DNA of 64,000 nt from Eledone cirrhosa (lineage: Eukaryota): NCBI GenBank assembly GCA_964016885.1, contig OZ024742.1, positions 85,064,001 through 85,128,000 on the forward strand, read 5' to 3'. This document shows, in pieces, positions 6,915 through 43,700 of this stretch (its first letter is position 1; the number at the start of each line of letters is the position of its first letter). The notes below the pieces were generated by a model. The model saw nothing but the letters and a program-made list of their open reading frames with translations. It was not told the origin of the DNA and did no database searches. The position numbers and the translations under genes were made by a program.

Positions 6915-8159
6915 TCATTTCAGGTTGTTGTTGTGCTTATTCATTAATCTTCTTTTTAACTGTCTCTTTAGTGCCTGACTATTATGATCAATATCTTGCT
7001 CCCATATTCCTCTCCAGAATGCCTTAGACTGTTTAGCATCAGGGAATACATCGTTACCTCTTTCTTTTCCTTCCAGCTGTTCAAATAACATCTTCTGGTT
7101 GTTGTCAAACATGTGGTTATGTCTATACTTACTAACTCTGTTCTCATATCACTTAATCGGTTTGCCGTTTGCTAGAATGCATTGCTTAAGTTCCTTTATG
7201 ATAACATTTCGCTCTTTTCCCTTAGTGTTGTATTTTATTTTCAATCTATGTTTAGTGTTTATATTTTATAATGTCATATTTAGTAAACACTCAAGCTTTC
7301 CAATATATTTTCTCATTTTTTGTTTCTTCCACCAAGGCCCTATTTTTTATTGTTTGTTGTTTCCTCTTGTTTTAATACAAAGCAATTTCCTCACCACATT
7401 TGCGGTTGCTTTGAAGATGGTGTTGCATCGATGAATGTTCTTCGCCTCAGGATATGGGATGAACCTGTTCACCTTAGCTGTCGTTTCTTCTAACTTTTTC
7501 CTGTCTACAAATCTTAGGTTCATAGGTTTTCCACTATCATTATAAATTTCATCTGCCACTAATTTCAGAATATCAATCTGTGTTGCAGAAGTTATTTATT
7601 TCAGAATTCAGGTCATTGTCTTCTCGGGTTGCTTCCTCAGGTCTCCAAACCTCTTCACCCTCATTACCCACTGGCTCATTTGCCTGATATACTCCACTCT
7701 CCATTTCCAACTCCATCTCTCTGCTCATGTTCTCCAGTTCCAACTCGCTTATCTATCCATTGGTTCTTATTACAAGAGCCTGACTCGCCAATCTGTGTGC
7801 ACCTTATTTAAATAGACCACCTTATTCCAGATTTTATGCATCGGTTTCCTATAGCCGTTTTCCATGGGGTCACCCTTCAGGTAACATCTCGTGACAATTC
7901 TATTCGATTCTTTCGTCCAATTGGTTCTTACCCAATTCCTTCTTCTTCCTCCAAACACAGCAGTATTTGGAGGATAGCCAGGTCCTTGCTGCTAAGCCAG
8001 GGAGCATTTGCTGGCTGATAGTCTTTGACGTAAAGTTCCAGTCGCCTTTTCACCGTTATTCGAATTATTTAAGTTCGACATTTAAACACTTATATCGAGG
8101 ATTGGTGAATTTAAGTTTGCACCAACACCAGTGCTTTTAGCGTGACGTCATCACGTTTC
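6915..8159 (-). mobile_element. R4/Dong-type non-LTR retrotransposon, 5' portion (decayed)
   Basis: Minus-strand peptides RTNWTKESNRIVTRCYLKGDPMENGYRKPMHKIW and MFDNNQKMLFEQL...PDAKQSKAFWRGIW resemble Dong/R4 N-terminal regions; the 5' end abuts (TAA)n at 8160. Confidence 0.7.
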
Positions 8160-8180
8160 ATTATTATTATTATTATTATT
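8160..8180. repeat. (ATT)n microsatellite, insertion-site remnant
   Basis: Sits exactly between the Dong 5' end and the Tx1 copy A 5' end. Confidence 0.9.
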
Positions 8181-11100
8181 GGCGACCTACGTAGTAAATC
8201 GTATCATCGTGAGCTCAGCAAAGGTTTGTTATTTTCAGTTGTTTAAAATTGCCATTTATGGAAAATTTTTATTGTTAACTGTATATAAGTGCACATACAT
8301 TGATTTCTGAAAAGGACACTCAAAAAGATTGGGGCCTTGAGCCCAAAATTTAAACTTTTTATAATTATCAAACAAACATTTTTCTTTGAAAAATCATGGA
8401 TGACTCAGAGTCACTCCTTCCTCACAATCTAACACCTCACACCGACACCACCATTGTAAATATTGCTACGTTTGCCAACACTGGAAATGTAAGCAGTAGC
8501 AATATTTTAAATTTGTATCAGGCAGACGTTCATTTACCGCCATTACCAATGACTGCAGGTGTTAAAACCGCCACCCCCACCAGCACCACAGCGACGACAG
8601 AAACAAAAGAAGAAAAAATTAACTCGTGATATCGAAATGAATTCAACCAAAATGAACTCTTCCACACCGAACACCATTGACGCCACCACCACCACCACAA
8701 CTGAAACTAAAATTAATAATAGCAAAAATAACGATAACAACAACAGCAACAATGAAATTAAGAAAACTACCCTGAGTTTTGCTAGAGTAGCAAAAACGTG
8801 CGAAGCGATCCAGGTAACTCAAGAGGAATTAGAAGAGGCCAAAGGAATGGTAAAGAAAGATGGGTACAGGGTCAGCATCACCCCCCCCTAATAAAATGGA
8901 GAAACGTAGCCTATGCACCGTGTCTTATCGGACAATTAACATAAAATCGCGCCGAGTGGAACGGGCATCCGAGTCCCAAACCCAAAAGCTTTGGGACATG
9001 TGTGGGCAAAAAAAAACCCACATCAGACGTGGGCAGAAATATGGAACCGTGGACGTGTTATTTTAAACACCACAGGAGGCCAGAGAACATTCCATGGCCC
9101 CATTAAGAAGTGACGACTTCACACACGTCCCAAGCTATTGTGGCCAGAGACTTGTGAAGATCAGGGTGACCCACGTTCCACCGGCCATCGAAATTCCCTG
9201 GCTAGTGGCTGCCGTCCTCGCCGGCATTGAGGCCAACACCAAGATAATTGAAATAGCGAAAGAAAAGCAGGAGAACTGGTCCGGATCTAGGATGGAGCTC
9301 CTGGTCCAAGCGGACCATAAAAGCATTGAGGAGATCCCAGAGGTAATAGACCTCACTGACGGCAGCCACCTCACCGTAATCGTCGAGGACAGAAGACCCA
9401 GGTGTGTCGTTTGTGTTGAAGGAATCCACCTAAGGGCTTTCTGCCCTCAGGCTAAAAGTATGAGGCCACCTCTCTTACCCAACCATCAACACCACCAGCA
9501 GCAGAAATGGCAGCAACAACTGTAGCAGCAACAACAGAAGCAACTGTAACAGCAACAACCCCAGCAACAGTAGCAAAACCAACACCACCACCACCCAACG
9601 CGCCAGAACTAGCGCCAGCACCTACACCATCCACCACGCCACAACCCAAACCAACGCCTGTGGAGGATTTTCCACTCCCCGGCTTATCGCAACTGGAGAC
9701 AGATTGTCACGACGAGGAGTGGGAAACGGTAACAGGAAAAAAGAAAAAAAGAAACCAAATAAAAAAAATTCTCTTCCCTCCCCCTCCAAAAACAAAATAC
9801 AGATGGAAACAAATAAACTATCAAACAAAAAAGTTAGGACAGATATGCCACCATCCACACCAGCCTCACCAACTCCATCACCACAAACACCAACACCATC
9901 ACCATCATTAACCCCAACACCACCATCACCAACACCACAAAAGTCACCAAAAAGCGAAGCAGAAACAAACCCACAACAAACGCAAACAAAACAAAAGAAC
10001 CAAAACGATACACACTACACAGCATTAAATTTGAACAACAACCAATTATTACACTACATGCAAGACAACACCAGCATCACAGAAAAAGACTACACAGCAA
10101 CCCAAAAGTTCACACCACATCCACACATACAAATCGCTCGCATCACACAGAAAACGTACACGACATTAACACAAAAATTCCTCAAAAGCATCGGAGACTT
10201 CCGACAAACACTCTCCAGGAAGATTTATAAGGACACCCTTCCATAGGAGGCCACAAGCAGTGAAAAGTTTGGAAAACCATCCTTCCTCTACGAGAAGTTA
10301 TGTAAGTGGTCTTTCCCATCTTTTCCACTCCATTTCAACATGACCTCACTCAGAATAGGCAGCATAAATGCGCGTGGCTTGGGGCGTCATGGAAGCAGGG
10401 CCACCTGCTCAACGACCTCAGGTCACTAAACATAGATGTAATGGCCATCAGCGAGACCAGAATCTCCGAAGCACGGGCCTTCGCACCGATCTTCGGCGGC
10501 TACGATGTGTATCTCCCAGCCGTCCGGGATCGGGGGGGGGGGGATTTGCTGTGCTTTTTCGGAGAGGTTTGGATCTCGCCATACGGGCCATCTTTCTGGA
10601 CCCAGAAGGTAAGTTAGTATTGCTGGACGTGACAAGCGGAGAGCGGCAAACTTTCAGGCTAGTGGCCTTCTATGCCCCGACAGGAACAGGGCGGCCTAAT
10701 TTTTTCCGGCGTCTGGAGAACTTTCTTGGAACGTCCCGCTCTTTAGTGTTAGTGGGCACTGGAACGGGATCTTAGATGCACCCTGGGACTATGTGGGATT
10801 AGCGGATAGGGGAGGAGGGTGCAAGAGCCTCACCAACCTGCTCAGGCGTTTTGAACTGTCTGACAGGTACCGATTGGATTTCCCGCATGTGCCAATGTGG
10901 ACTTAAACAAATCGCATAGGGTCATCCAGATCATATCTCGATAGAGTATTTTGTAGAGAAATAGATAGTTCTAGCATAGGCTGTCCACAATTCAAGATAG
11001 TCAGCTACACGAACCACAAATTCGTGATCTGTGTGCTTGACTTAGATAGGCTTCATAGACGAGGACCCGGCTACCGGAAGCTAAACGCGTCCTTACCAGC

Positions 11101-11447
11101 GCGCAAGGCCTACAGAGCCTGGATTAGCGAACTAGTTAAGCAGGCGTTGACGGGGGCCTACCGTCAACAACAAGTGGTGGTTTGCTCTGAAAAGAGCAAT
11201 TAGAATAGAGTCCATTAGGTTTAGTAAGGCTTTAGCAATAGAGAAAAATAGAGCAGAGGGAGAATTAGTCCGAAAATTAGACGAGCCGATTAGCAAAGGC
11301 ATCGCGACCGACGTACTTGCGACGAAATTGGCCCTTGACCAATTCTTCAATGCAAGGCACAAAGGCTGCGTTGTCAGAGCTAGGATGCGTACTCCCAGAC
11401 ACAAGGGGAGGAAAGCCGTTCAATGGGCCCGAGTGGCGGAGGCGCAC
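8181..11447 (+). mobile_element. Tx1-type retrotransposon copy A (frameshifted ORF1 from ATG 8396; ORF2 from ATG 10340, 3'-truncated)
   Basis: ORF1 pieces are homologous to copy B ORF1 (LSFARVAK...EELEEAK, CTVSYRT, CVVCVEGIHLRAFC). 10302-11445 is nearly identical to 16135-17281. Several frameshifts and stops. Confidence 0.9.
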
Positions 11448-13779
11448 ATGCATCTTTATGTGATTTGACTTGTGATGTACTTATAATGACAGAATATATT
11501 GACAGAATCTTCCTTAGTATATGGGCAGTTCCCATTAGTACTATCTTTCATATTTCTCCTATATGCGGGTTTCTTGGGATTTGAGATAAGTAATTATTAG
11601 ACCCCCTAGGTATCATTCCGAGAGCGCCTACAACCATTGGCATCGTTTTAGTTCTCAATTTCCACATTTTTCCAAGTTCATCTCCAGGTCCTTATACTTG
11701 CTAAATTTTTCAAATGTTTTTATAGATACATTCTTGTCTATTGGAACGGACATATCAATTAGCAGGCATATCCTCTTTTTAAGTCCTTCAGTATTATATC
11801 AGGTCTATTTGCATCTATTTTTCGGTCTGTTTGGATGCTAAAGTTCCACAAGATTGAGATGTGATCTTTTTCAAGTACTGGAGACGGTTGATGCACCCAC
11901 CAATTCTTTTGATGGGGCAGGTCAAAATGCTTACACATTATCCAATGTATGTATTGTGCAGCTCTGGCGTGCCTGTTTAGGTATCCTGTTGGAGCTATAG
12001 GACTGCACATTGAAATTATATGATCAATGGTCTCTGGTTATTTTTTACATACACCGCATAATGGGTTATATCCATTTTTTATTATGTTGGCTTGGTAATT
12101 TTTGTTGGCAGACACTAATCTTGTGCTGATATAATTAGTCCTTGAGTCTTCGATTTCAGTCCAGAGGATGCCAACCACTGATGTGTTAAAGTTTTGTCAA
12201 CATCAGGATTGTTAGCTTTTTCTGGGTATTTTCCATACAGAGGCTTTTCTTGCCATTTCTTAACCAGTTTCTGTAGCAGTTCTTTCTTTGCAGTTACTTT
12301 TACCTGCTTTGCCTTTTATGTGTTTTTCATTTCAGCAGTAAATGGGACTTCTGTAATGTGTTGTCCGTTACTGTATCTTTGTGCATCTTTTGTAATGGAG
12401 TATGATCTTTTGATGCTTTCGTGTTTCAAAACGAGTTTGATCATCCAATCATGTGATTCTCTTAGATATGTATATAATCCAATTGTTGCAGTTTTCAACG
12501 CAATATCTAACTGGATTAACCCACGTCCTCCTTATTTCCTAGGGAGATATATTCCTTAGGGTGATGCATTCTGTGCATGGTTAAGAATTTTTAATATTTG
12601 TATCGAGCCTAAGGACTTCTGTGCTTGACCAGTTGATGACATTGTAACTGTAGGTTACTACAGGTATGGCAAGCGTGTTTATGGCATGGATCCTATTCCT
12701 TGCATTCAATTCCGTTCTTAAGATTGCTCTTACTCTGCGGTAACATTCCTTCCTTATTCCTTCCCTCATTGTCGAGTGCTTGATTCCGTCTCCTTCACAA
12801 ACACCTAGATATTGTAAGTTTCCTCTTGATCAGGTTCTCCTATCACATTCCCCCGATCAAGATTAATGTCTGAACTTTTCAGCAGCTTACCTCTGGTGAA
12901 CGTTGCTTTAGCGCATTTATCTAGTCCAAACTCCATTTTAATGTCATCACTGAACTGCTCCCCAGTGGATAATAGCCCTTGAGATTGTTCATCATTTTTT
13001 GCAAATAGTTTCAGGTCATCCATGTAGAACAAATTATTAATGGTTTTGCCATAGACTGTATATCAATGTTTTGTTTCATTGAGCATCTTACTTAATGGTA
13101 TAAGTGCGATGCAGAATAAAAGCGATGATAAAGAGTCACCCTGAAAAATTCCACAATTAATATTAACTTTTCCAGCTTGCAGTGATTTTTTTTCACTATT
13201 CAAAAGGACTGTGGTTTTCCATGTCGTCATACTGAATGACAGGAACCTCCTGACAACGGGAGATATTTTGAAAATCTCTAAACATTTTTCAATCCAACTG
13301 TGTGGCAAACTATCGAATGCTTTTTTGTAATCTATCCAAGCAATTGATAGATCTTTTTGTCTAATATGACAATCTTCCAATATCATTTTGTTAACCAAAA
13401 GCTGATCCTTACAGCCATATGAGCCTCGTTTACACCCTTTCTGATCATTGGGAAATAGGACATTTGTTATCAGGTGGTCATATGTATATTCAGTTAGGAC
13501 TGACGTTAACATGTTATACATTGTGGTCAAGCAAGTTATCGGTCTGTAATTTTTGGAATTGTTTGTCTCAGCATTCTTCGGATGTAGGAATGTAATGCCG
13601 TTAACTAGCCATTATGGTATATTTTCTGGCTCCTTAACTATTTCATTGTAAAGTTGGGCTAACAGCTCATGAGACTCTGTGAAGGCATTTATCCAAAAAT
13701 TTTGTATTTTGTCTTTTCCTGGGGATTTCCATTTGCTGGTTTCTCTTAGAGCCAAGCGCAACTGTTCAACTGTCATATT
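11445..13779 (-). mobile_element. R4/Dong-type retrotransposon, 5'-truncated and decayed (RT, CCHC, restriction-like endonuclease)
   Basis: Minus-strand motifs WIDYKKAFDS, GIFQGDSLS, FYMDDLKL, YLPRK-GGRGL, ILWNFSIQTDRKIDANRPDII (PD..D-type RLE). The 3' region matches 20019-20220. Confidence 0.88.
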
Positions 13780-13820
13780 TTCTTCTTCTTCTTCTTCTTC
13801 TTCTTATTATTATTATTATT
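13780..13820. repeat. (TTC)n-(TTA)n compound microsatellite
   Basis: Directly 5' of Tx1 copy B. Confidence 0.9.
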
Positions 13821-14122
13821 GAATGCCATGGTTGACGGAGGCTCGGCTCTGTAAGGTATAGTAATTTTTAACCGTTAAAACAATTGTAAATTGTTTAAAA
13901 CTTGAACCAAATTGTTGATAAAGACACACTCCTCCTCGTGAGAGGGGTCTTTCTGTCCGTTATTTGGCCCTTCGGGGTTAAATAACCAGTTATTGGGGTT
14001 TTGTACCCAAAATTTCATTTTAAACAAAAAAACAACATGGCTACGAAAAAAAAAAATTTCATACGTCACTCCCACTCATTCCGTCTTCTTCTTCCTCAAT
14101 CATCACTACAGCAGAGAGAAGA

Positions 14123-16138
14123 TTGTCTCTCTCCCTCCCTTCTTTAAATGTGTCTCTCTCCCTCCCTTCTCTTTCGCAAGTGACGAAAGAAAAGAAAAGT
14201 CTCGTGCAAAGCGTGCAAGGTTTCTCCACGACGACGACGACAGCGACGAAACAGGTGTGCGGGAAATACGAAAACCCAGTTCATTCGTCTGACGTCAGGA
14301 ATAATAGCAGTAGCAGCCGTAATAACAACAGCAACAGTGACAATGAAAACAACAGTAGCAGCCGCAACAGCATCACCAGCAGCATAAACAACAACAGCAT
14401 TAGCAACAGCAACACCAACAACAACCACAGCAACAGCGGCGGAGGCAGTAGTCGTAGTACCTGCAGCAACAACAAAAGTACCAGCAGCTCTGACGACAAC
14501 AACAACAGAAGAGAAAAACCAATCTCATTTGCAGGTATTGCGAAAAACTTGGAAACAATCCTCATAACAAATGAGGAATTAGAGGAAGCGAAGAAGATGG
14601 TGACAAAAAACGGACACCGAGCAATCTGCAAGGCAGCGGAAAACTTTTTCGAAACCCAAGAGCACTGTACGGTCACGTACCGTACAGTAAGTACAAAATC
14701 CAGTAGGGTGGAAAGAGCCACAGAGGCCCAAATACAAAAAGCCTTGGGATCTGTGTGGCAGCGGAAAACGCACATCACCCGAGGCAAACAATATGCCACC
14801 GTAGACGTACTTTTTGCCACACCCCAGGAGGCAAAGGCCCAATCAGTAGTGACCCTAAGGAGCGAGGAAATGGTGTTGGTGCCCTCCTACTGCGGGCAAA
14901 AAATTGTGAGGGTCAAACTGACCCACGTCCCCCCCGGAATGACCCCGTCTTGGCTGGCCGCGTCTGTCCTCGTCGGAATCGAGGACAAAACAACTGTACT
15001 ACAAGTACAGAAAAAAGTAAGAGAAGATTGGGTCGGCTCCTCCATTGAGATGCTAATCCAAACCAACCAGGAGTGCATCGAAGCTATCCCGGATGCGATA
15101 GACTTCGATAACGGCACTCAACTGCCCATAAGTGTTGAGGGCAAACGCCCGAAATGCTTTCGCTGTGGATCGAAGACTCACCTCAGGGCCTTCTGCAACG
15201 AGAAGACCCTGAGAAAGGAGAAAACCCCCCTCCTTCCGAATCCGGCTCCACGGCTACCAGCAACAGGACAAGCGGCAACCAGGAACGATAGGTCCGTGGC
15301 ACCCATACCCACTCCACGGAAATCAAAAACAGCAGCAGCAGTGGAAATATTAACAACAACAACAACAGCAATACCAAATGCAGCTGCAACAGAGACTCCA
15401 GTGCAAACATCACCAACAACAACAAGTGAAAGAGTGGAGCTGGTACCCCTCCCCGACCTCACAGAATCAGACATGGAGTGTGAGGTGGGAGAGGGATGGC
15501 AAAAGGTCGCAAGAAGACACAAACGCAGAAGCAGCGCATCGTCGCCTTTGAAAAGGGAGGAAAGAAATGAGAAAAGGGTAAAGTCTACTGCAAAGAGACC
15601 CACAGCAGCAACACCACCAACACCATCACCACCCACACCAGCACCACCATCACCACCGGCGACAACCCCACCGCCAACAACACCTTCAACACCACCCCCA
15701 CAAGCACCAACATCGCAAACACAACAACAAAACACACACACCCAGCAACAACGACAAGAAAATAGCAGAACCACACCCCACCCCCAGAAAAACAAATGCA
15801 CGGCAATAAACACACACAACAAGAAACTAATGACTTACATAATTGAACACACAGACATTTCACAACAGGACTACATAATACCAGCACCAATCAAAACGCC
15901 AACTAACATAAGACTGCTAAAAATAGCACAGAAACAATACACAAACATTAAAACGAAATTCCCCAACGCAGTTGGTGATTTCAGGGACCTAGGAGGAACC
16001 ATCAATCGAAGAGTATATTCAGACATTCTCTTAGAAGAGCCGACGACCAGCCGAAGGGACGATTCAATGGTCCCTTCACCAGACGATCAAGTGAAAAGGG
16101 ATGTAAAAACCATCCCTCCTCTACCAAAAGTACGGTAA
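14123..16138 (+). CDS. Tx1 ORF1p (gag-like nucleic-acid-binding protein with zinc knuckle)
   Basis: 671-aa open frame with CFRCGSKTHLRAFC knuckle and N/S-rich and P/T-rich low-complexity tracts. The real start is probably ATG 14037, one base out of frame across an A11 run. Confidence 0.85.
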   Translation: MSLSLPSLNVSLSLPSLSQVTKEKKSLVQSVQGFSTTTTTATKQVCGKYENPVHSSDVRNNSSSSRNNNSNSDNENNSSSRNSITSSINNNSISNSNTNNNHSNSGGGSSRSTCSNNKSTSSSDDNNNRREKPISFAGIAKNLETILITNEELEEAKKMVTKNGHRAICKAAENFFETQEHCTVTYRTVSTKSSRVERATEAQIQKALGSVWQRKTHITRGKQYATVDVLFATPQEAKAQSVVTLRSEEMVLVPSYCGQKIVRVKLTHVPPGMTPSWLAASVLVGIEDKTTVLQVQKKVREDWVGSSIEMLIQTNQECIEAIPDAIDFDNGTQLPISVEGKRPKCFRCGSKTHLRAFCNEKTLRKEKTPLLPNPAPRLPATGQAATRNDRSVAPIPTPRKSKTAAAVEILTTTTTAIPNAAATETPVQTSPTTTSERVELVPLPDLTESDMECEVGEGWQKVARRHKRRSSASSPLKREERNEKRVKSTAKRPTAATPPTPSPPTPAPPSPPATTPPPTTPSTPPPQAPTSQTQQQNTHTQQQRQENSRTTPHPQKNKCTAINTHNKKLMTYIIEHTDISQQDYIIPAPIKTPTNIRLLKIAQKQYTNIKTKFPNAVGDFRDLGGTINRRVYSDILLEEPTTSRRDDSMVPSPDDQVKRDVKTIPPLPKVR

Positions 16139-16173
16139 GTGGTCTTTCCCATCTTTTCCACTCTATTTTAAAC

Positions 16174-19100
16174 ATGACCTCACTCAGAATAGGCAGCATA
16201 AATGCGCGTGGCTTGGGGTCGTCATGGAAGCAGGGTCACCTGCTCAACGACCTCAGGTCACTAAACATAGATGTAGTGGCCATCAGCGAGACCAGAATCT
16301 CCGAAGCACGGGCCTTCGCACAGATCTTCGGCGGCTACGATGTATACGCATCTCCCAGCCGTCCTGGATCGGGTGGAGGAGTTGCTGTGCTTTTTCGGAG
16401 AGGTTTGGATCTCGCCATACGGGCCATCTTCCTGGACCCAGAGGGTAAGCTGGTGGTGCTGGACGTGACCAGCGGAGACGGGCAAGCTTTCAGGCTAGTG
16501 GCCGTCTATGCCCCGACAGGAGCAGGGCGGCCTGATTTCTTCCGGCGTCTGGAGACCTTTCTTGGAACGTCCCGCTCTTTAGTGTTAGTGGGCGACTGGA
16601 ACGGGATCTTAGATGCACGCTGGGACTGTGTGGGATTAGCGGATAGGGGTGGAGGGTGCAAGAGCCTCACCAACCTGCTCAGGCGTTTTGAACTGTCTGA
16701 CAGGTACCGATTGGATTTCCCGAATCTGCCAATGTGGACTTGGACAAACCGCATAGGGTCATCCAGATCATATCTAGATAGAGTATTTTGTAGGGAAATA
16801 GAAAGGTCTAGCATAGGCTGTCCACAATTCAAGATAGTCAGCTACACGGACCACAAATTTGTGACCTGTGCGCTTGACTTAGATAGGCTTCATAGACGAG
16901 GACCCGGCTACTGGAAGCTAAACGCGTCCTTACCAGCGCGCAAGGCCTACAGAGACCGGATTAGCGAACTAGTTAAGCGGGCGTTGACGGGGGCCATCGT
17001 CAACAACAAGTGGTGGTTTGCTCTGAAAAGAGCGATTAGAATAGAATCGATTAGGTTTAGTAAGGCTTTAGCAATAGAGAAAAATAGAGCAGAGGGAGAA
17101 CTAGTTAGAAAATTAGACGAGGCGCTTAGCAAAGGCATTGCGACCGACGTGCTTGCGGCGAAATTGGCCCTTGACCAATTCTTCAATGCAAAGCACGAAG
17201 GCTGCGTTGTCAGAGCTAGGGTGCGTGCTCTCAGACACGAGGGGACGAAAGCCGTTCAATGGGCCCGAGTGGCGGAGGCGCGTCGTGGCAACAAAGCCAC
17301 GATCCGGTCTTTGGTGGACCACGATGGGCGCATGCTACTCGATCCCGGGCAAATGTGTGAAGCTTTTCAGAGACACTTCGCTCAGCTGTTCGGGGGCAGC
17401 GGGGGGCCGGGTAGAGGGATGGACTTTAGTGTCTACCTCGACGGACTGCCGCGGCTCTCGGCCACTGAGGCGAGGTGTTGCGAAAAGCCGATAACAGCCG
17501 CTGAAGTACGGGAGGCAATGACTGGCTGCACAAGGGGTAAATCGCCTGGTTTGGATGGTCTGCCCTATGAACTTTACGTACAGATGCCAGACTTGTTCGG
17601 AGGCCTCTTGGCGGACGTCTACTGCAACTGGCAACAGAACGGGAGAATTCCCAGTTCTGTGAGCCGAGGAGCGGTGGCACTGCTGAGAAAGGATCCGAAC
17701 AAGGGGGATAACATAGACAATTTCCGGCCCATAACTCTGCTAAACACAGAGTTTAAGATTTTGGCCAAGGTGCTAGCAAAGAGGTTGGCGCTTGTCGTTG
17801 GTGGTCTGGTGGGAGAGGCGCAGACATGCGCCATTCCCGACAGATCCATCCACGACAACCTCCACCTCATGCGATACATCGTAGAGTGGGTAGCTAGGGA
17901 ACCTGGCACGGGTGGGTCCTTGATCAATTTAGATCAGTCGAAAGCTTTCGATAGGGTCGACCATCGTTACCTAGCGGCAGTCCTGAGGGCGGCTGGCTTT
18001 GGGCCCGTCTTCAGAGGCTGGATCGCTGCCATGCACAGCGACATCTGCTCTGTGGTGAGAGTGAACGGTCACCTGTCGGAACCGTTCAACATCATGCGCT
18101 CGGTCCGCCAAGGATGTCCCCTCTCGTCCCTCTTGTACGTATTGACTCTCGAGCCATTACTGCACAAACTGGAGACGTTGAGGGGAGTCCCGCGCGAACT
18201 AGGATGCGGAAGATCCGTGTCAGCATATGCGGACGATGTCACCGTAGTGGTGTCGAACGCCAAACACATCGAGGCGATCGGCACTACACTAAGAGAATAC
18301 GAAGCGGTGACAGGAGCAATGATCAACCAGGAAAAGTCAGTGGGACTGCAGCTCGGCACCTGGAGAGGCAGGTCCATGCCGTCCAACAGCGTCGTCGGGC
18401 GCTGGACGGACGGACCGGTTAAATTGCTAGGGGTCTGGTTCGGTCCGGACCTCCAGACGGACAAAAACTGGGACGAGGTGACGAGCAGGGTGGCTTCTCT
18501 CACCCAGAAATGGGCGGAGAGGAAGCTATCCCTGAAAGGTCGAGCGGAGGTGGCTAACGCGTACATCGCGTCTGTCATCTGCTACCGCCTAACCGTCGTA
18601 CCTTGTCCTAAGCCTCACCTGACTGCGCTGGAGCGTTTGCTCTTTCGCTTTTTGTGGAAGGGACGTGCTCCGATGGTCAGGCGGTCCATCTGTTGTCAAC
18701 ACCCGCTACGTGGAGGGCTGGGCATGCCGTGGCTGATGATGCGCAGGCACGCGCTCAGGCTACGACATCTCCACCTCTTCCTCGACGGTGATCAGGTGTG
18801 GTCGCCGTTTGCTAGACGCGTTTTTCCCCAGCTCGTTTCCTTGACGGAGCTGCAGTCCTGGGTCAAGCGAAGACCGAGAGGGAGCGCCTGGAGACTGGAA
18901 TGTCTTCAGGCGCTCACAGCCCTCGACCAATCGGGCAATGTGATCGGTGGAAACTCCACCTCGGCGTTCTATAGAGGATTAGTGGAGGGGAAGAGCGACG
19001 ACGTACTTGGGGAAACTCTAGGCGTCGACGAAAATCAACTAGCCAATCTCTTCGGAAGAACTTTCGGGCCAGGGCCTATGGACAACTTCCAGAAATCTCT

Positions 19101-19593
19101 GGCCTGGCAGTGCTACCGAGGAGCCTTGCCAGTTCGGGATAAACTCTACAGGCATGGAGGTGCCGTCAGCCGGGCATGTCCGAGATGTGCGCAGGGCGAC
19201 GAAACCGTCCTGCACGCACTCGTTCAGTGTCCGAAAATTGCTGACTTGTGGGTTTATGTCGAACACCTGCTGTCGCGTTTAGGACGGATCCAGCTATCAT
19301 CTGAGTCTATCGTGAGGATTGCCCCGCCCTCCTCCTTTAGCCGGGAAGGGCAGGCAGTTTTTATCTGTCTGGTGGCCATGGCGAAAGAGATAGTATGGTG
19401 GACACGTTTGAAAGGGCTGAAGACGAGCACTTACCTCTTCGGTGATGCTCTGATTGACTTTTTCAAATTTCATTTGAAAAGGAAAATCAGAGTAGAGAAG
19501 GAAGTGCTCTCTTCCCAGCATTTTGTTGAAAGATGGGTGAGAGAAGCAAGAATGGCCCGAGTGAATGGGCCGACTCTGAGTATATATCTGTAA
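16174..19593 (+). CDS. Tx1 ORF2p: APE endonuclease, reverse transcriptase and C-terminal zinc-binding domain
   Basis: 1139 aa intact. SINARGL, ISET, VYAP, GDWN, SYLDR, TDH (APE); KSPGLDG, RPITLLN, LDQSKAFDRV, VRQGCPLS, YADD (RT); CPRC...ETVLHALVQC. Confidence 0.95.
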   Translation: MTSLRIGSINARGLGSSWKQGHLLNDLRSLNIDVVAISETRISEARAFAQIFGGYDVYASPSRPGSGGGVAVLFRRGLDLAIRAIFLDPEGKLVVLDVTSGDGQAFRLVAVYAPTGAGRPDFFRRLETFLGTSRSLVLVGDWNGILDARWDCVGLADRGGGCKSLTNLLRRFELSDRYRLDFPNLPMWTWTNRIGSSRSYLDRVFCREIERSSIGCPQFKIVSYTDHKFVTCALDLDRLHRRGPGYWKLNASLPARKAYRDRISELVKRALTGAIVNNKWWFALKRAIRIESIRFSKALAIEKNRAEGELVRKLDEALSKGIATDVLAAKLALDQFFNAKHEGCVVRARVRALRHEGTKAVQWARVAEARRGNKATIRSLVDHDGRMLLDPGQMCEAFQRHFAQLFGGSGGPGRGMDFSVYLDGLPRLSATEARCCEKPITAAEVREAMTGCTRGKSPGLDGLPYELYVQMPDLFGGLLADVYCNWQQNGRIPSSVSRGAVALLRKDPNKGDNIDNFRPITLLNTEFKILAKVLAKRLALVVGGLVGEAQTCAIPDRSIHDNLHLMRYIVEWVAREPGTGGSLINLDQSKAFDRVDHRYLAAVLRAAGFGPVFRGWIAAMHSDICSVVRVNGHLSEPFNIMRSVRQGCPLSSLLYVLTLEPLLHKLETLRGVPRELGCGRSVSAYADDVTVVVSNAKHIEAIGTTLREYEAVTGAMINQEKSVGLQLGTWRGRSMPSNSVVGRWTDGPVKLLGVWFGPDLQTDKNWDEVTSRVASLTQKWAERKLSLKGRAEVANAYIASVICYRLTVVPCPKPHLTALERLLFRFLWKGRAPMVRRSICCQHPLRGGLGMPWLMMRRHALRLRHLHLFLDGDQVWSPFARRVFPQLVSLTELQSWVKRRPRGSAWRLECLQALTALDQSGNVIGGNSTSAFYRGLVEGKSDDVLGETLGVDENQLANLFGRTFGPGPMDNFQKSLAWQCYRGALPVRDKLYRHGGAVSRACPRCAQGDETVLHALVQCPKIADLWVYVEHLLSRLGRIQLSSESIVRIAPPSSFSREGQAVFICLVAMAKEIVWWTRLKGLKTSTYLFGDALIDFFKFHLKRKIRVEKEVLSSQHFVERWVREARMARVNGPTLSIYL

Positions 19594-19853
19594 ACTAAAG
19601 GTGGAAAACTGGGAGAGGGCACTTGTCTTGGTGGTCAGGGTCATTGTGGCTTTTTACTGGGCTTTCTCCACAAATGTCCCTCCGAAGTCTCCCCCCTATT
19701 GGGGAATTTTTCATTGTTATTTTCATTGTTATTTTTGTTACATCCTCTGTTTTTGTTTTTTTACACGCAGAAATGCCCATTTGTACCGTCCTGCATTGTC
19801 CTGCACTGTCCTTAATGTCTACTTTATGTAAACCCTTGTGGTTAATAAAGAAA

Positions 19854-19855
<2 letters not shown>

Positions 19856-19910
<55 letters not shown>
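19856..19910. repeat. (ATT)n microsatellite / Tx1 tail
   Basis: Follows ...AATAAAGAAATC directly. Confidence 0.9.
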
Positions 19911-19911
<1 letters not shown>

Positions 19912-20222
19912 AGTTTCATTAATCTTGCTTTATGTTCATACGAGTTATCACCAAGTCACAACCAATGACCTCAAGAGACAACAAGGTCCGCCATGTTCAA
20001 GAAAGAACATACATATTCACACATGCATTTTTAGTGTTTAGACTTGTGATGTACTTATATTGACAGAATCTTCCTTAGTATATGGGCAGTTCCCATTAGT
20101 ACTATCTTTTGTATTTCTCCTATACGCGGGTTTCCTGGGATTTGCGATATGTAATCATTAGACCCCTTAGTTATCATTCCCAGAGCGCCTACAACCACTG
20201 GTATTGTTTTAGTTCTCAAGAG
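19911..20222 (-). mobile_element. R4/Dong family 1, short 5'-truncated copy with intact 3' end
   Basis: 20019-20220 matches 11445-11660; (ATT)n on both sides. Confidence 0.8.
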
Positions 20223-20283
<61 letters not shown>

Positions 20284-20284
<1 letters not shown>

Positions 20285-21107
20285 TCCTTGAGTCTCAGTC
20301 ATTGATGTTAGTTAACTGGAAAGTTTGTTGGAATGAATATCAAGCCACTACCTGCAGCCTCAGATATTCATGACGTATCGGAGGGTTCTTGCTCTTCCCA
20401 GCAAGCATGCCTTTTGAAGCGTTCCCAAAAGCGTGAAGGGGCCGATTTTCTTTAACCATCCCTGGAACATTTTGGAGATAGTCCCCAGTGCGCCTATGAC
20501 AATCGGGATCACTTTGACTTCATGGCAGTCCAAATCCTTTTAACCTCCCACTTTAGGTCCTGGTATCGGTTAATTTTCTCCCTCTCCTTCTCTTGCACTC
20601 TCGTGTCGAATGGGCAGGCCACATCCACAATCAGGCACGATCTTTTTTCTTTGTCCACAACCACCAGGTCAGGTCTATTGTGTTCCAGTTTCTTGTCCGT
20701 CTGTATCCTAAAATCCCACAGCACCTTCACCTGATCGTTCTCTATCACCGCCTCTGGCTTATGCTCATACCACTTCTCAGAATGTGGTAAATTGTTTACT
20801 TTTCACAGGTGCCAGTGGATCACCCTGCCCATCACATCATGTCTCCAGCCCTTATAGTGGGTCTGGGCTAGGTGTTTACACTCGGATACAATGTGAGCCA
20901 CAGTCTCCTCTCTCTCTCCACAGATCCTGCACAGTGGGCTAGCCTCCTCCTTGTAAATATGGTGTTTCAACCACTTCGTTTTGAGGGCCTGCTCCTGCGC
21001 AGCCATTAACATTCCTTCTATAGCCTTTTTAAGGTCTCCTCTTTTCAACCAGTTCAATGGCCGTGGATCTCTAAATTCAGTTTTCTCAAAGAAGGTACTA
21101 TGAAGGG

Positions 21108-21108
<1 letters not shown>
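20284..21108 (-). mobile_element. R4/Dong family 2, 5'-truncated copy (CCHC + RLE)
   Basis: EGMLMAAQEQAL, CRICGEREETVAHIVSEC and VLWDFRIQTDKKLEHNRPDLVV...DVACPFD; flanked by (ATT)n at 20223-20283 and 21109-21167. Confidence 0.85.
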
Positions 21109-21167
<59 letters not shown>

Positions 21168-21169
21168 GT

Positions 21170-21777
21170 TGTTCTTTGAGTCTCAGTCATTGATCTTATT
21201 TAACTAGAAAGTTTGTTGAAATGAATATCAACCGCTACCTGCAGTCTCAGATATTCAGGACGTATCGGAGGGTTCTTGTTGTTCCCAGCAAGCATTCCTT
21301 TTGAAGTGTTGCAAAAAGCGGGGCTGGACAAATCTTCTTTAACCATCATTGGAAACTCTTTGAGATAGTACCTATTGTGCCTATGAGAATCGGGACGACA
21401 TTGATTACATGGCAGTTCCAAATCCTTTTTACCTCCCACTTTAATCTTGGTATCGGTTAATTTTCACCCTCTCCTTTTCTTGCACTCTCGTGTCAAATGG
21501 GCAGGCTACATCTGTAATCAGGAACGATATTTTTTCCGTGTCCAAAACCACCCGGTCAGGCCTATTGTGTTCTAATTTCTTGTCCGTCTGTATCCTAAAA
21601 TCTCATAGCACTTGCACCTGATCATACGACATCTCAGAATGTTACTTTGCATAGATGCTAGTGGATCACCCTGCCTGTCACATCATGTCTCCTGCCTTTA
21701 TAGTGAGTCTGGGCTAGGTGTTTACACTCGGATACAATGTGAGCCACAGTCTCGTCTTTCTCTCCACAGAGCCTACA
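21170..21777 (-). mobile_element. R4/Dong family 2, second more decayed copy
   Basis: Colinear nucleotide similarity to 20284-20930 with an internal deletion. Confidence 0.8.
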
Positions 21778-22216
21778 CGTTTCTTCCAGAAAAAATGTGT
21801 GGAACGAACCAGCGGAGCATATACAATGTTAAAACAAGTAATTAGATTCCTGGTCAATAGAAAATTAAGATACATTATAATTAACAGTGTCAGTGACATT
21901 ATATTAAAGAGCAATAACAACAAAATAATATTACAATGATAAGATAGTAACATATTGAAAAGTGTTTTCAATATTTATGAAGAGAGTAATACTTAGTCAA
22001 TATATCAAGCATATTATACCAAGAATGTTAATAATAGCATGCCTTAAGGTAAGACAGGTGTATAATGGGAGTATGTGTTAAGTAAACAGTATATGCTGAA
22101 TTAATTGCAGACAAATATGTTTACGCAGGTGGTAATATAACAAGTTTATATTTGTCTGGAAGAAAGGATCGTCAGCATTTGAATACATTAAACAAAGCTT
22201 TTATTGTTTTCTATGT

Positions 22217-29454: not shown

Positions 29455-32400
29455 TCTTTAGGTCGTTTTGGAAGTCTCAACAATGCAGGTGGGTAATTCT
29501 CTGGGTAACAAGATCCGGTGCTGGAGAGAGAGATGTAAGTGAATGTAGAATGAGATGTATAGTGTGTAGAAGAACGTAGGAAAGAGCGTAACAAATAAAA
29601 GTAATAACACGAGATAGAGTTACCACTCTCACAATTAAAAGAACTATTTCAGCCGCCCACCTCTGTTTGACTGACCCCAGTTATTACTCAGTTATTCAAA
29701 ACAACGAACAGTAGAGGACACGTATCGATCCTATCCGACATATAAACGTAAACTCTCCCCCAGTTGATGGATGTGAATCCGAAATATAGGGACAATTAAA
29801 TCTCTCCCAATGTAATTCTATCTCGTGTTATTTTTATTTTTTATGCTTTTTCTTATGTTCTTCTACACATTATACATCTCATTCTACATTCACTTACATC
29901 TCTCTCTCCACTACCAGATCTTGTTACCCAGAGAATTACCCACCTGTATTGTTGAGGTTCCAAAACGCCCTAAGGAAAATATATCCTCTTATTCCACAAT
30001 GCTTCAAGCAAACTTCAATACTCTCTTATCCTGAGCCAGGAATTGTTTGCATCCGTAAGGGAACTGTTCAGACTGTCGGTGAAATGGGCCAATGTTGGCT
30101 GTCAAATTATTTTCCTGAAACGCTGCCTAAAAAAACGATGTCATCCCCACCACCATCAGGAACATCCACTCACCAGGATGCCTACATACACCAGCTTTTC
30201 AAAACCCCACTAGCCGCATACATCGCACGTGTATCAAACAGATCCTGAGATATCTCAACCGCCAATTGCACATCCATAAGCGGACACTCTCAGAGCGGAC
30301 ACATCGACTGTCAGTAACACCCGGCGACTTGCTCCTTAAAATCACTAAAACAATCGACCAGTGCTACCACTCCAGAGTCCAACACGAGAAAAAACGGCTC
30401 GAGCGTAAATATGAGTGGATCCTGTCTAAACTCCACAACGAGAACACCAACACTAACAAACAGACACACCAGAACCACGTGGAAAACAACAACGTAACAA
30501 CCGCCGCCGATGCATCCTCCAACACTGAGCCACACCTCAACGATGCGACGCACCTGGTCGCCGACCTAACCGGCACTCTCACGAGCGACGAACTGAAACG
30601 CCTACGCCTTGGACCCAAGTTCATCGTCTCACAACGACTCGACGACAGACTCAAACTCGACATCGAAGCCAACTTCTGTCGAGCCGAGCCGCCTACCAAC
30701 TTAAATAGGTGTCCGCCATCAACAACGCCACAGAAAATAACAGCGCCCACGCAAATCACGCTAAGTTCCCCCACATACCACACCGCCAACCCACTCCACC
30801 TCCACCCACCAACCACGAACTCGACACTAAACTCATCAGGTTAAAACACTCCATCTCGGATATTCTACACAAAAACACACACACACGCACAACACACAAC
30901 CTCACCAAATCCCAACTCACCTCTCTCTCCAACCTGAAATCGAAGAATCTTATCTACCTCCCCTCCGACAAGGGAAAAGAATTCTGCGTCATCAACAGAG
31001 AGGCCTACAACATTCTGTCCCTCCAACACCTTGCAATGACAACCTCTACTGCAAGGTCACTGGAATTACTCCCGCGCAGATAGAGGAGCACATCAACGCC
31101 GCCTGGGCGAACATCTGCGACCGGCGGAAGCTCCCGAAGAATATGAGATACAACCACATCACGAGGAATAGCAGACTACTCGCCTTCTAACACCTCGTGA
31201 AAACACACAAACAGGGACCCGACCTGACGATCAAACCCATTGTATTGACCGTGGAAGGACCGCTCTACAAAATGTTATGGCTCCTAGGCAGAATACTCAA
31301 ACCCATCCTAGACACAATGCCAGGATACGTAAACAGCCCCGTGGAGGTGTTGGAGCGCCTGCATCAAAAGGAGCCCGACACCAGAAAGGCTAACAGATAT
31401 GCCTTCAGCCTTGATGTAGTCGTTCTTTACACCTCGGTCCCGGCACTCCCGACCGTTGATATACTGATGGTACGCGTCCAATCTACCGACCTACACTGCT
31501 TCGGGCTCACCACCACTGACATCCATCAACTCCTATCCATCGTCGTTCACAACACATACTTCGGATTTCTCGCCCAAACATACCAACAAACTCGGGACTG
31601 CCCATGGACTCAAGCATGTCGAGTTTGCTAGCGATCTCATACATGGACAGCCACGAACGCAAGGCACTCAACACCTGCCGCCCCAACGACGTCGCCTTCT
31701 TCTCAAGGTACGTGGACGATATCCTCCTCCTCACATCTTCCCAGGAGATGGCGAACAGAATCTATGAGACGTTCAACAACACGGACGAGAATATTGATTA
31801 CAGTGTTGAACACCCCAGCGACCATGGGTCCCTTGCCCTCCTCGACCTCCGAATCAACATCACAGAACAGGGAGCTATATACACCAACTTCTACCGCAAG
31901 GCAGCCTGCAGGGACCTGTTCGTCCATTACAAGTCCGCCCTCCCTAACAGTGCTAAAATAAGGTACATCACGAACGAGATCATGCGAATTAAAAACAGAT
32001 GCACCGATCCCACGAGTGGTGTCACCCATACCAAGCGATTCCTCAAAGTTCTGGAGACGAACGGGTACCATGCCTCACTCACAAACAGAATAAGAGACAC
32101 CAGACGCAAGAGGCAGAGAAAGACCCAAGACAAGTGCTTCCTTAAAATACCACACCTGGTCGAAAATACCACCAAAGCTATCTGCAGGGGTATACGGAGG
32201 GAGGGCTTCGACATCCACCTGACCCACTCGGACCCCTCCCTGCGAAGATGCCTCTCCAGGAAACCCGGGAAATCGACTGACGCGTGCTCCCTCAGAAACT
32301 GCCCGATGCACCATACGAACTGTTGCTCACGCACATAAGTCGCGTATAAGGTAGAATGTAACAACTACTATATAGGTAGCACAATCCGGCCGCTACACAT

Positions 32401-33343
32401 CCGGATCAAGGAGCACATCAACACCAGGGTCTCATCTTTCCGGAAACACTTAACCAAATGTGGAAACAAAGACGGAAGGCCCATTGTCGCAGTGCTAACG
32501 ACGGAACGAAACGTCTGCACATTACGAATCAAGGAAGCACTTTGGATCAAACGCCTAGAGCCACAAATAAATAATCGATCCGAGAGAAATGAGGTGGTTG
32601 GTTTAAACAAAAGATGCAACAGCCCACGCACACACACACACAAAAGCGAGACAACAACACACGCACACACACACACAGTAGCATTCCACCATACGAATAT
32701 ATACTACACTGCTAATACAGATAAACGAGGCAACGACACACGCACGCACACACACACACAAGCGAGACATCAACACACGCACACGGACATACACACAGTA
32801 TCATTCACCAAACAGATTAGGGAATACGACGACCACACGAATACACTATTCAACACTGGAAATACAGAAACCAGCACAGGCAGATAATACAATGGTTTGA
32901 CAGTTAACGCCATCCCACTCCCACAATTAAAATAACTATTTCAGCCGCCGTCCTCTGCTTGACCGACCCCATTTCGCGCGCGCGCTTTGCTGAATATCTC
33001 AGTTATTCAAAACAACGGACAATAGAGGATACGTATCGATCCTATACAACAGGTACCCTCCCCCCGGAAAACCCCCCAGTTGATGGATGTGAATCCGAAA
33101 TATAGGGACACTTTAATCGCTCCCAACGTAACTCTATCTCGTGTTATTATTTTTATTTTTTACGCTCTTTACTACGTTCTTCTACACACTATACAGCTCA
33201 TTCTACATTCACTTACATCTCTCTCTCCACCACCTGATCTTGTTACCCAGATAATTACCCACCTGAATTGTTGAGGATTCCAAAACGACATAAAGAAATT
33301 TATCTTATTCCACAATGCTTCAAGCAAACTTCCATACTCTCTT
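29455..33343 (+). mobile_element. Full-length but decayed Penelope-like element with pseudo-LTRs and an inverted 5' segment
   Basis: Direct repeats 29624-30030 and 32915-33343; inverted copy 29455-29623. Frameshifted ORF from ATG 29999: FLKRC, LGPKF, PSDKG, SLDVVVLYTSVP, RYVDD, FYRK...SALP, YIGSTIRPLHIRIKEH, EALWIK...PQIN. Confidence 0.9.
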
Positions 33344-33344
33344 A

Positions 33345-33611
33345 TATATATATATATGTTTCTATAAAATTTAGAAATGGCTTCAACAGGTATAATACTC
33401 TTTATTCGAAGAAAATCGTCACGATTTCCATCTAATGAAACAGTTCTAGTCCTGTAGAAGCAGGTTCTAAATGTCGTATATACTCTAGTAATGTCATGAG
33501 TGGTTACTTACTGTGTTTCCACTCGATTTAACCCGGGACTCTCTCTCCCCCCCCCCTGTCTCTTGCTATCTCCCCCATTTTTCTCTCGCTCTCTCCCTCT
33601 CTCTCTCTATA

Positions 33612-40760: not shown

Positions 40761-43700
40761 GTACATATATATATGTATATTACATCTATGTATATATTTA
40801 TATATATGCATATAATATGTATCTGGTATGCTTAAAGCGAGAAAGAAAATTCGAATTTAATTTATATATATATTTGTATATACAATTGGAAATAGCTAGA
40901 TCACCCCAAAACGTTATTGTGTATAAACCTCTAGTATTTGGTTGTTTACGCAGTTTTATCCAGATTTCTTAAACTAACTAGAACCTACGACCACATTGTA
41001 ATCTGTACATTCTACCTATAAACACGGCACACAAACTTACACCCATATATATCGCAAAGGATTTTGCAAAACCTTTGTAAGTTTAAATTTGGCGCCGGCA
41101 AGGCAGCACTTCTTTGATAACAAAGTTACCACCAAATGAGCCGTAAGTACACAAATGTAATAAGAAAATATGTAATTAATTTTGCCAGTCTTGCTTTTAC
41201 CTCTTGGAAACTGAGTTAGATTTCGAGAATTAGTAACTTGACACTTTAGGGCCAGTGATCTTCTTCCACCCTATACTACTAGCAAGCCGTGTACCCCACC
41301 CATTCGATACCCCGTGCCAACGTGTGCTCACCATATGTTTTCCTTATGCCGGGCAGCCAACATCCGGTTACATATCATTGCAAGCATATCACAAATAATA
41401 AATCATATACCATTATCCCCAAATACCTGTCTGATGACAACATATGGATTAATTGTTACATAACGAATGTATGTCCTTTAAATGTACATAACAGGATGAT
41501 GTATTAAACTGTAGCTGTATGCTTGATACAGTATGTCTTCCTTTTCATAATATTGTAACTCTGTTTGATACCATATATGCACTACCACATGGTGCATATT
41601 TAGTGTAGTGCTTACGTCTCATTGCACGATAATCGGTCCATTGTTTGATAAACCAAAACTGATCACTTACAATTTCTAAGTCAATAATGCTTTCGAAATT
41701 ACCAGACTATTATTTCAAAGTGATGGAATTTGAAAGATATCGTCGGATATACACGTATTATCTACATTCCCCACTCTTTAGACATAATCTCAAGGTAATT
41801 GGAATCTGCTATGCTGCTAGGGTATCAATGAAGTATTTCATACAATTTCATCTCTTAATTAAGATGATGAAGTATTTATATTGAAACCAATCATTTAAGG
41901 TCATGCACATGGAAAATATGATAGAATATCATTTACTTTAGTATTTTTCATGGCAACTGTTGTGGCGGCGATGAAATATAATGCCAACTTGTGGCTTCAT
42001 TGTTTCTTACATATATCCATACGGATACACGTAATGTATCCGAGTATAGCCACTTCTTCTCACAAAAAATAACAAAACTAAAACACTACATTCATATATG
42101 CACGATTGTGTACAAATTTGATGGTTCTCCAATTGTGTCGGAGGATAATTCTAACTGTCTTCTATTAAATAGACCAATCAAAATCTATTTAATCATATGC
42201 CTTAGAATAGGAGTTTGAAATGTGATATAAATAGGAGCAGACTAATTCAATCCTGTTATAGTTTATGTAAATTATAACATACTATGTATAGCTATCAGGT
42301 AATATTTTCTTTGTGAATTTGAAAGTGATCAACCGACATCGGATGATACTTTTTATTATTCAGAATACATTGATGTCGAATTCTATTTTGTCTGATTGTG
42401 AAAAATAAGTGAGTGCGACCACCCCACTCATTAAATTCTCACAGTTCCTTTGCACAAGGATTTCGTGACCGAATCAGACCCTGAACATGATGACCAGTCC
42501 ATCTTTCGAGCGTGAGACTACACTGTTGAATGGGAAGGATTTGCCGCTTGAGGTGTAGAACTGAACGTCCACCCAATTGTAATTATCCGGGTTGATTTTT
42601 ACTAACGTCAAAGTTTCATAATCCTGTTAGTAGTTGCCGAACATTTCGATTACCAAAATGTTCGAAACATCACGGTGAAATTGTATACATATGCTAACAC
42701 ATCCCTTCCACGCTCTAGTTCGAGCACAATGCCGTTCAACAGTTCCAGCTTCCGCATTGATCGCTCGAGAGTCAGGTCTTACTGTAGTGACGAAAAGGTG
42801 TTTCTTGACTGACCGAATGCGTGATGTGAAATTATCACTATAAATGACCCTTTACATCGAAACAGAACCTAGGGGCGAGAAAAAATTGTCTTGAGAACAG
42901 TCACCACATACGGATGATCGACCATATAGAAATATTTCGATTGATCAGAGACCACCCGAAGCCTGGTTTTCTCCTTACCCTATTATTTGGCGTAGCGATT
43001 GAGGTAGATTATGTTATGTATAGGCCTGATATCGCTCTCCTTGCGCTTCTGTAACTAGATTTGTTACGACAAGCAGCAACGTCTTAACTATAACGTTGGC
43101 AACGATCTTAAATACTTTAGAAGTTATGGGCCACAATTTATTAAATATTTCCCACTATCTCGTCTATCCTCATCGTTAACTGATAAACGGAAATAAAGCA
43201 ACAATTTCAAAACATAATCTATAAATACATAATCAATCTAAACATAATTATGAATAAAATAATGCAAATGTTTTACTGTGAAATTATCGAACATTTCTAG
43301 AAACACTATATTTATCATAAAGCTTAAATCCATAAATCGCTATTATTCATAATTTAATCAAATTTTGAGGATATAATTCTGCCTCGAAGCAGGAACAATG
43401 CTATACTATTATTTCCCTATTATAATATGGAGTCTAATTTCGGAGTTGGTATTTAAATATTCTTAAAAAATGAATAATGATGTATCAGGTTTGTGTTTGA
43501 GAAATGTTGAGTAAATCACGGACACGGGGAATGTTTTGATAAAATTCTTTTTTGTCATCAGTTAAGCGGGCCGCAAGCACACATAAGAACATACTGATCA
43601 ATAAATCATTATTTATAAATGCACGCTTGGGTAGTGTTATTGAACAAATCTTTTGTTGCCAAAATGTCAGTGTTATAATTTTCAGGTTTATAATACACCT

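Follow-up and report, generated by a model that had tools for sequence, protein, structure and literature searches.

Among Tx1-type LINEs, the precedents for insertion into microsatellites are Kibi, which targets (TC)n, and Koshi, which targets (TTC)n, both from teleosts (PMC4494074; PMC3812793), together with the crocodilian Tx1-1_Crp group, whose target is (TTCC)n/(TTTC)n (PMC4494074). As these sources describe them, all are APE-encoding LINEs with two ORFs that carry one microsatellite on both flanks, and a Tx1 family is regarded as sequence-specific if one repeat type occupies more than 20% of its flanks (PMC4494074). The mechanism by which APE elements target microsatellites has been called poorly understood (PMC3812793). 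TAA repeats are given, in the available text of that source, for Dong alone (PMC3812793), an element with a single ORF and an RLE nuclease. That APE and RLE lineages can converge on one target is indicated by Keno (Tx1, APE) and Utopia (RLE), which are both described as U2-specific, with identical 3' flanks at the same site and on the same strand (PMC4640811). As for cephalopods, the active LINEs named in the available text of PMC9115989 are RTE and Dong, and Table 1 of PMC13282606 gives, for Octopus vulgaris, 13 recently active L1-Tx1 families with 421 insertions as well as recently active Dong-R4 families; the word 'target' is absent from the main text of that article.

Here we describe a LINE family that lies in (ATT)n in the 3.0-Gb genome of the octopod Eledone cirrhosa. 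By analogy it appears to work like Kibi and Koshi; its target, however, has an A/T-only unit, whereas the targets of Kibi, Koshi and Tx1-1_Crp are pyrimidine-rich. It shares its microsatellite with Dong but differs in having an APE nuclease, two ORFs and the opposite orientation, and, unlike Keno and Utopia, the APE and RLE lineages here face opposite ways within the repeat. Like the Octopus vulgaris L1-Tx1 families, which probably include orthologous ones, it consists of young, long copies. Microsatellite-specific Tx1 elements are thus known, and the ATT target is new as far as we searched: no (ATT)n-specific Tx1 element was found in the literature covered (a set without Repbase, Kojima and Fujiwara 2004, and the target list in figure 3 of PMC4494074).

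The copy B locus and its neighbors

The window is a 64,000-nucleotide stretch of contig OZ024742.1, to which all positions below refer. It holds two copies of the family on the plus strand, copy A and copy B, and several minus-strand RLE elements, which we take to be Dong/R4-like from their RT, CCHC and RPD motifs.

8160..8180, +: (ATT)7 array upstream of copy A (from the sequence)
8181..11445, +: copy A, an older sister subfamily, degraded, 3' part deleted (by sequence comparison with copy B)
11445..13780, -: Dong/R4-like RLE element, family 1, 5'-truncated and degraded (RT, CCHC, RPD nuclease motif)
13804..13820, +: 5' (TTA)n array, 17 bp; its junction phase, ...ATT followed by GAATG, is common to sibling copies
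13821..19855, +: copy B, full-length APE non-LTR retrotransposon of 6035 bp (L1 group, Tx1-like); termini set by sibling copies
14037..16138, +: ORF1, about 698 aa in intact siblings; ATG out of frame here, with an A11 run at 14046-14056
15155..15196, +: ORF1 CCHC zinc knuckle, C-x2-C-x4-H-x4-C (from the sequence)
16174..19593, +: ORF2, an open frame of 1139 aa counted from Met (Pfam matches to APE, RT and zf-RVT)
about 16174-16890, +: ORF2 APE endonuclease, catalytic motifs present
18226, +: ORF2 reverse transcriptase YADD motif
19177, +: ORF2 C-terminal CCHC motif
19594..19855, +: 3' UTR with terminal sequence CCCTTGTGGTTAATAAAGAAATC and no poly(A) (from the sequence)
19856..19910, +: 3' (ATT)18 array, serving copy B as tail/target and the convergent RLE fragment as (TAA)n tail
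19911..20222, -: RLE family 1, 3' fragment between two (TAA)n arrays (from the sequence)
20284..21107, -: Dong/R4-like RLE element, family 2, 5'-truncated, between the (TAA)20 arrays 20223-20283 and 21108-21167
21168..21778, -: RLE family 2, second fragment (from the sequence)

The first-pass annotation, made from this stretch alone, had read copy B as starting after (TTA)n and ending in (ATT)n, copy A as likewise starting directly after the repeat, and ORF2 as open over 1139 aa; each of these observations stands as tabulated. The first bases of copy B, GAATG at 13821, abut the (TTA)n array, which likely houses the upstream copy of the target-site duplication, and (TTC)8 lies just upstream of that array. 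(TTC)n is in fact often found immediately beyond the 5' (TTA)n array (window 13780-13805; loci L040, L042, L059 and L060) and, in at least one case, at the truncation point of an RLE element. At the other end of copy B, AATAAA occupies 19844-19849, 6 nt upstream of the repeat. Its 3' UTR folds no better than shuffled sequences (z -0.70), and an Rfam search of window positions 8000-22000 gave no matches.

The domain order of ORF2, with an N-terminal APE, an RT and a C-terminal CCHC (PF03372, PF00078 and PF13966 in Pfam), is that of the L1 group, and its structural matches lie nearer L1 than RLE elements: the best solved relative is human LINE-1 ORF2p (E 9e-53 over EN-RT; PDB 9k6g and others), with R2 proteins at 6e-22 or weaker. 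The EN hairpin loop region is equal in length to that of LINE-1 in the alignment. Compared with human LINE-1, however, the copy B family has no poly(A) tail, a CCHC-type ORF1, a strict repeat target and mostly full-length copies. The features of Dong/R4 are not those of copy B, which encodes an APE, has two ORFs and carries (ATT)n on its own strand. In a quick tree with long branches, ORF2 grouped with animal sequences, apart from plant L1; its relatives there are unnamed or 'hypothetical' proteins of argonaut, limpet, fish and turtles, among which no named Tx1-clade reference figures. The family is likely a member of the Tx1 clade. Among named proteins, the nearest are those of Argonauta hians (73% across the RT region), along with a fragment within a gene model of Octopus sinensis. 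A metagenome scan found 71 related loci, mostly 23-33% identical, and the 32 inspected had no (ATT)n arrays and one poly(A) end, being too distant to inform. Related ORF2s of Patella caerulea and Metynnis hypsauchen (the P0250 and P0329 clusters) carry consecutive locus tags, which suggests tandem arrays of other target-specific relatives.

ORF1 has low-complexity N- and C-terminal parts around a core with RNA-binding-like domains. It matched no Pfam family and no homologue was found; look-alikes in the ESM Atlas (0.88-0.93) have zf-CCHC, ZCCHC3 RNA-binding and RRM domains, a lead only, and a single-sequence fold was unusable (pLDDT 32). Tx1 ORF1s have been defined as Type I-like, with RRM and a CCHC knuckle rather than Transposase_22 (PMC5203782). 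In the closest siblings, A9 in place of the A11 run restores the reading MATKKKF; 14 of the 16 examined have MATKKK in frame or the A9 form, and the ORF1 start is in frame in 31/36 full-length copies. The two extra A's of copy B may be either a mutation or an assembly error. With a working-looking ORF2 and a frameshifted ORF1, copy B would be a less likely source of new insertions than its siblings.

Copy A is 93% identical to copy B in DNA at the start of ORF2, which carries several frameshifts, and differs from it in the 5' UTR and ORF1, where the core is 49% identical in amino acids. Six complete A-type copies switch to the B sequence at B position 2270, immediately ahead of ORF2; what distinguishes the two subfamilies is thus an exchanged 5' module. 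None of the seven A-type copies fetched had intact ORFs. A class of 1161-aa ORFs that was suspected of being A-type proved to be B-type in 12/12 cases fetched.

Six elements or fragments are piled in one repeat tract around copy B, with (TAA)n arrays between them. Because minus-strand RLE elements border both flanks of copy B, the owner of the (ATT)n cannot be assigned from the window alone. Genome-wide, the Dong/R4-like family ended in (TAA)n on its own strand at 30/30 loci, a polarity opposite to that of the copy B family; RLE 5' flanks were observed only in the window. Elsewhere in the window are a degraded Penelope-like element (29623-33345) with an RT, a GIY-YIG-like motif recognized by eye and terminal repeats in both direct and inverted orientation, and an old RT fragment of a related LINE (42467-42827, minus strand; 65% identical), near which there is no ATT array.

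Flanks of the family across the genome

(ATT)n lay directly 3' of the element at all 30 of the 3' ends fetched from 40 matches listed. At the other terminus, 30/30 B-type 5' ends (26 distinct flanks; 38 matches listed) and 30/30 A-type 5' ends (40 matches listed) followed (ATT)n, with ATT immediately before the G in nearly all full-length junctions. A flank-blind sample was chosen by an internal 311-bp piece of ORF2; the 40 matches scored, out of 629 candidates, were all 100% identical and came from one strand of one chromosome. In these copies, of which 36 were full length, 3 truncated and 1 unresolved, (ATT)n was present at 40/40 3' ends and at 38/39 resolvable 5' ends, and copies chosen by EN protein match had it at both ends in 12/12 cases. 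One repeat type thus occupies 97-100% of flanks in four samples, well above the 20% by which sequence-specific Tx1 families have been recognized. The junctions are ATT repeats and not the (TC)n or (TTC)n of Kibi and Koshi, (TTC)n being present merely farther out at some loci.

For comparison, across 20 arbitrary regions of 10 kb each (200 kb), 15 bp of perfect (ATT)n immediately precede 305 of the 399,400 oriented positions (0.08%). (AT)n arrays, which cover 3.7% of this control DNA against 0.27% for (ATT)n and are thus about 14-fold commoner, lay directly at none of the scored junctions. Truncated copies gave a further view of the target. Among 15 5'-truncated copies, a set that omits 5 further rearranged or unresolved loci, 9 had at least three ATT units upstream, 2 had one or two and 4 had none, against a background of 0.12% for 9 bp of (ATT)n, and the phase of their 5' junctions varied. 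That 9/15 truncated copies also follow (ATT)n argues that the repeat is the target and not just a tail. In addition, no duplicated unique sequence was found outside the arrays at the 47 full-length loci listed, where the shortest uninterrupted 5' arrays measure 15-18 bp, which indicates that the arrays existed before insertion. The first-pass annotation had proposed (TTA)n specificity, to be abandoned if most 5' flanks were random; the 5' ends of all four samples, and most of the truncated ones, bear the proposal out. At least three more LINE tail variants (…GGCCAATAAAGAAATC, …GGCTAATAAATGAAATC and …GCCCAATAAAAAGAATC) also terminate in (ATT)n, pointing to further subfamilies with a shared target.

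Age, tandem stacks and mosaic copies

All 150 EN matches scored were at least 98% identical, 122 of them in open frames of at least 1161 aa; copy numbers given here are lower bounds (at least 150). In the 40-copy sample, ORF2 was intact in 29 copies and both ORFs in 20. Across 30 intact ORF2s the pairwise distance averages 0.43%, in agreement with the youth proposed for the family at first pass, and copies of the ORF2 sample stand 0.24% from the family majority. The accompanying suggestion of a near-intact, possibly active element holds for ORF2, which is open, and for the family, half of whose sampled copies have both ORFs intact, with the caveat that ORF1 of copy B itself is frameshifted. 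Shared ORF2 variants (n = 28) comprise 19 synonymous and 9 non-synonymous changes, private ones 49 and 71, a pattern that would fit several active sources.

Many copies stand head to tail, an arrangement explained if each insertion regenerates (ATT)n on both sides. Of 18 tandem pairs, 15 differ by 14-84 substitutions and 3 by 0-5 bases, the median for random pairs being 38. At 6/18 pairs, the array upstream of the first copy contains an interruption that reappears at equal distance before the second; the duplicated stretch measures 24-42 bp and ends exactly at the neighbor's 5' junction (L372, L377, L362, L353, L370 and L413), and at L372 it starts in the unique flank outside the array (about 12 bp). 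These lengths are at odds with a plain duplication of 15-20 bp. The first 600 bp show 0-2 differences in the five of these six pairs that could be projected, as do 21% of random pairs, and three of the five have at least one rare allele in common. This suggests that the new cDNA may have been completed on the adjacent older copy, or that local duplication was followed by conversion. A similar interrupted array stands upstream of L377 (C1) and of L413/L414 (C4), a hint of flank carry-over.

Linkage was computed at 36 polymorphic sites in 61 copies (the B-type copies among L332-L383 and L404-L422). It falls from an r2 of 0.33 below 250 bp to less than 0.1 beyond 1 kb, and four-gamete conflicts reach 60-85%; the copies are therefore mosaics of shared haplotype blocks. 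Barring an assembly effect, such a structure is unusual for a LINE, and its cause could be template switching, ectopic conversion or assembly polishing. In sequencing runs, reads or contigs of the element reached very high depth in two, and depth 3-40 with few contigs in X4, X7 and X8; only low-complexity parts were covered in X22 and nothing in X20. Transfer between species was not accepted as a reading of the X4, X7 and X8 signal, given that depth and the few contigs.

A sister family, a SINE and the choice of target

A fragment in locus L090, 62% identical, led to a sister LINE family that is 68% identical to the copy B family in ORF2 (61% in EN, 76% in RT) and has a near-identical tail motif. 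It too is young (1462 candidates, with matches 99% identical). At 20 of its loci (L384-L403), the 3' end is a TATC-type or related TA/TACC repeat in 17, poly(A) in 1 (L389, right after the tail motif) and absent in 2, with (ATT)n at none of the 20; its resolved full-length 5' ends follow (TATC)n. With one family in (TATC)n and at none of these loci in (ATT)n, the target tracks the lineage and not the genome.

A tRNA-like SINE that is frequent in the flanks has the terminus GGCCTTGTGCC-AAAAGTAGAAACA(ATT)n, which the LINE tails, CCCTTGTGG(TT/CC)AATAAAGAAATC(ATT)n, resemble. It is abundant and young (1574 candidates; loci L149:6075-6250 and L252-L281). Duplications with at least 12 matches flank 17/30 young copies, and 13 of those 17 are unique sequence of 12-20 bp beginning with ATTA upstream; (ATT)4 precedes only 4/30. 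If this LINE group mobilizes the SINE, as the likeness of their tails would suggest, then the SINE gives the nick phase and the duplication length, and strictness at the level of the array needs more than the nick motif.

We consider it probable that the copy B family is a young, mostly full-length Tx1-like LINE family that enters pre-existing (ATT)n in one orientation, likely by target-primed reverse transcription on the repeat. The flanks, phase, orientation, youth and intact ORFs are observed in the copies; the steps of insertion are a proposal. The APE domain of ORF2 would nick the (AAT)n strand, and the transcript would run through AAUAAA into the downstream repeat, ending in (AUU)n plus poly(A). 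The (AUU)n would then anneal to the cut strand, so that cDNA synthesis is primed there, and priming in this way would leave the poly(A) uncopied. A second cut some 15-20 bp away would produce a duplication hidden in the array, and the (ATT)n left on both sides would allow stacking in arrays shared with the Dong/R4-like RLE elements, which use the opposite strand. Specificity carried by EN is described as established for Tx1L (PMC1950540), and pairing of RNA with the target has been described in other LINEs (PMC6007223). Counting against this explanation are the 4/15 truncated copies without 5' ATT and the 2 with one or two units; moreover, the SINE lies mostly outside arrays, so that, were it to use this ORF2, the endonuclease by itself would not require an array.

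The last point belongs to the strongest competing reading, possible though clearly less likely, in which specificity is set mainly by the RNA: EN would nick loosely at ATTA-like sites, while repeats in the RNA (a 3' AUU trailer and possibly a 5' AUU leader, if transcription began within the upstream array) would select arrays and finish the 5' join by annealing. SINE duplications that begin at short ATTA motifs, mostly outside arrays, agree with it, as do the near-invariable ATT-G junctions of full-length copies against the varying phase of truncated ones, the 36/40 full-length copies, and the similar interrupted arrays before copies on two chromosomes (L377, L413/L414); 3' repeats have also been proposed to influence site choice in RTE elements (PMC6007223). 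The partner of the SINE, however, is deduced from the likeness of tails only, and the absence of an outer duplication around 47 full-length loci implies arrays that pre-existed. EN is also the most diverged part of ORF2 between the ATT and TATC families (61% against 76% for RT), as fits EN-borne specificity. EN is often the faster-evolving domain. Somewhat less probable still is an extension of this reading to an RNA-guided, recombining LINE population, in which the microsatellite is picked mainly by the element's own RNA repeats and the 5' end is finished by annealing, either within the array or on an older copy next to it; this would explain the roughly 90% full-length copies, the invariant 5' junctions, the 24-42 bp duplications and the mosaic copies.

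The remaining alternatives would give the repeats or the copies another origin. It is improbable that DNA-level duplication and gene conversion, or assembly polishing, account for most of the high copy number, stacks and mosaics in place of many recent retrotranspositions. Some copies do have flanks in common (L034-36, L038/39, L052/53, L340-343), 3/18 tandem pairs differ by 0-5 bases and r2 decays from 0.33 to below 0.1 across the 61 copies, but the flanks of most copies are distinct and stop precisely at the ends of the element, private substitutions are present, and synonymous changes predominate among the shared variants (19/28). Such duplication would in any case bear on age and number, not on the target. 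That (ATT)n is merely the element's own tail, with 5' arrays due to stacking, slippage or survival bias, we regard as very unlikely and largely refuted. Many 5' flanks do consist of the tail of another copy or of a SINE; many 5' arrays, however, follow unique DNA or 5'-truncated RLE bodies, the background is just 0.08%, and copies 0.24% from the majority are already in arrays in 38/39 cases, which leaves little time for selection.

With (ATT)n, the known targets of Tx1-type elements gain an A/T-only microsatellite, and APE and RLE lineages are seen to share one repeat on opposite strands. Intact ORF2s in two sister families that are 68% identical and differ in target, together with a SINE of relaxed targeting, make the targeting mechanism testable. 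If the RNA-guided reading is true, the target would be reprogrammable through the terminal repeats, and the (TATC)n sister family would be a natural example. The many intact young copies make this family a candidate active element in a cephalopod genome.
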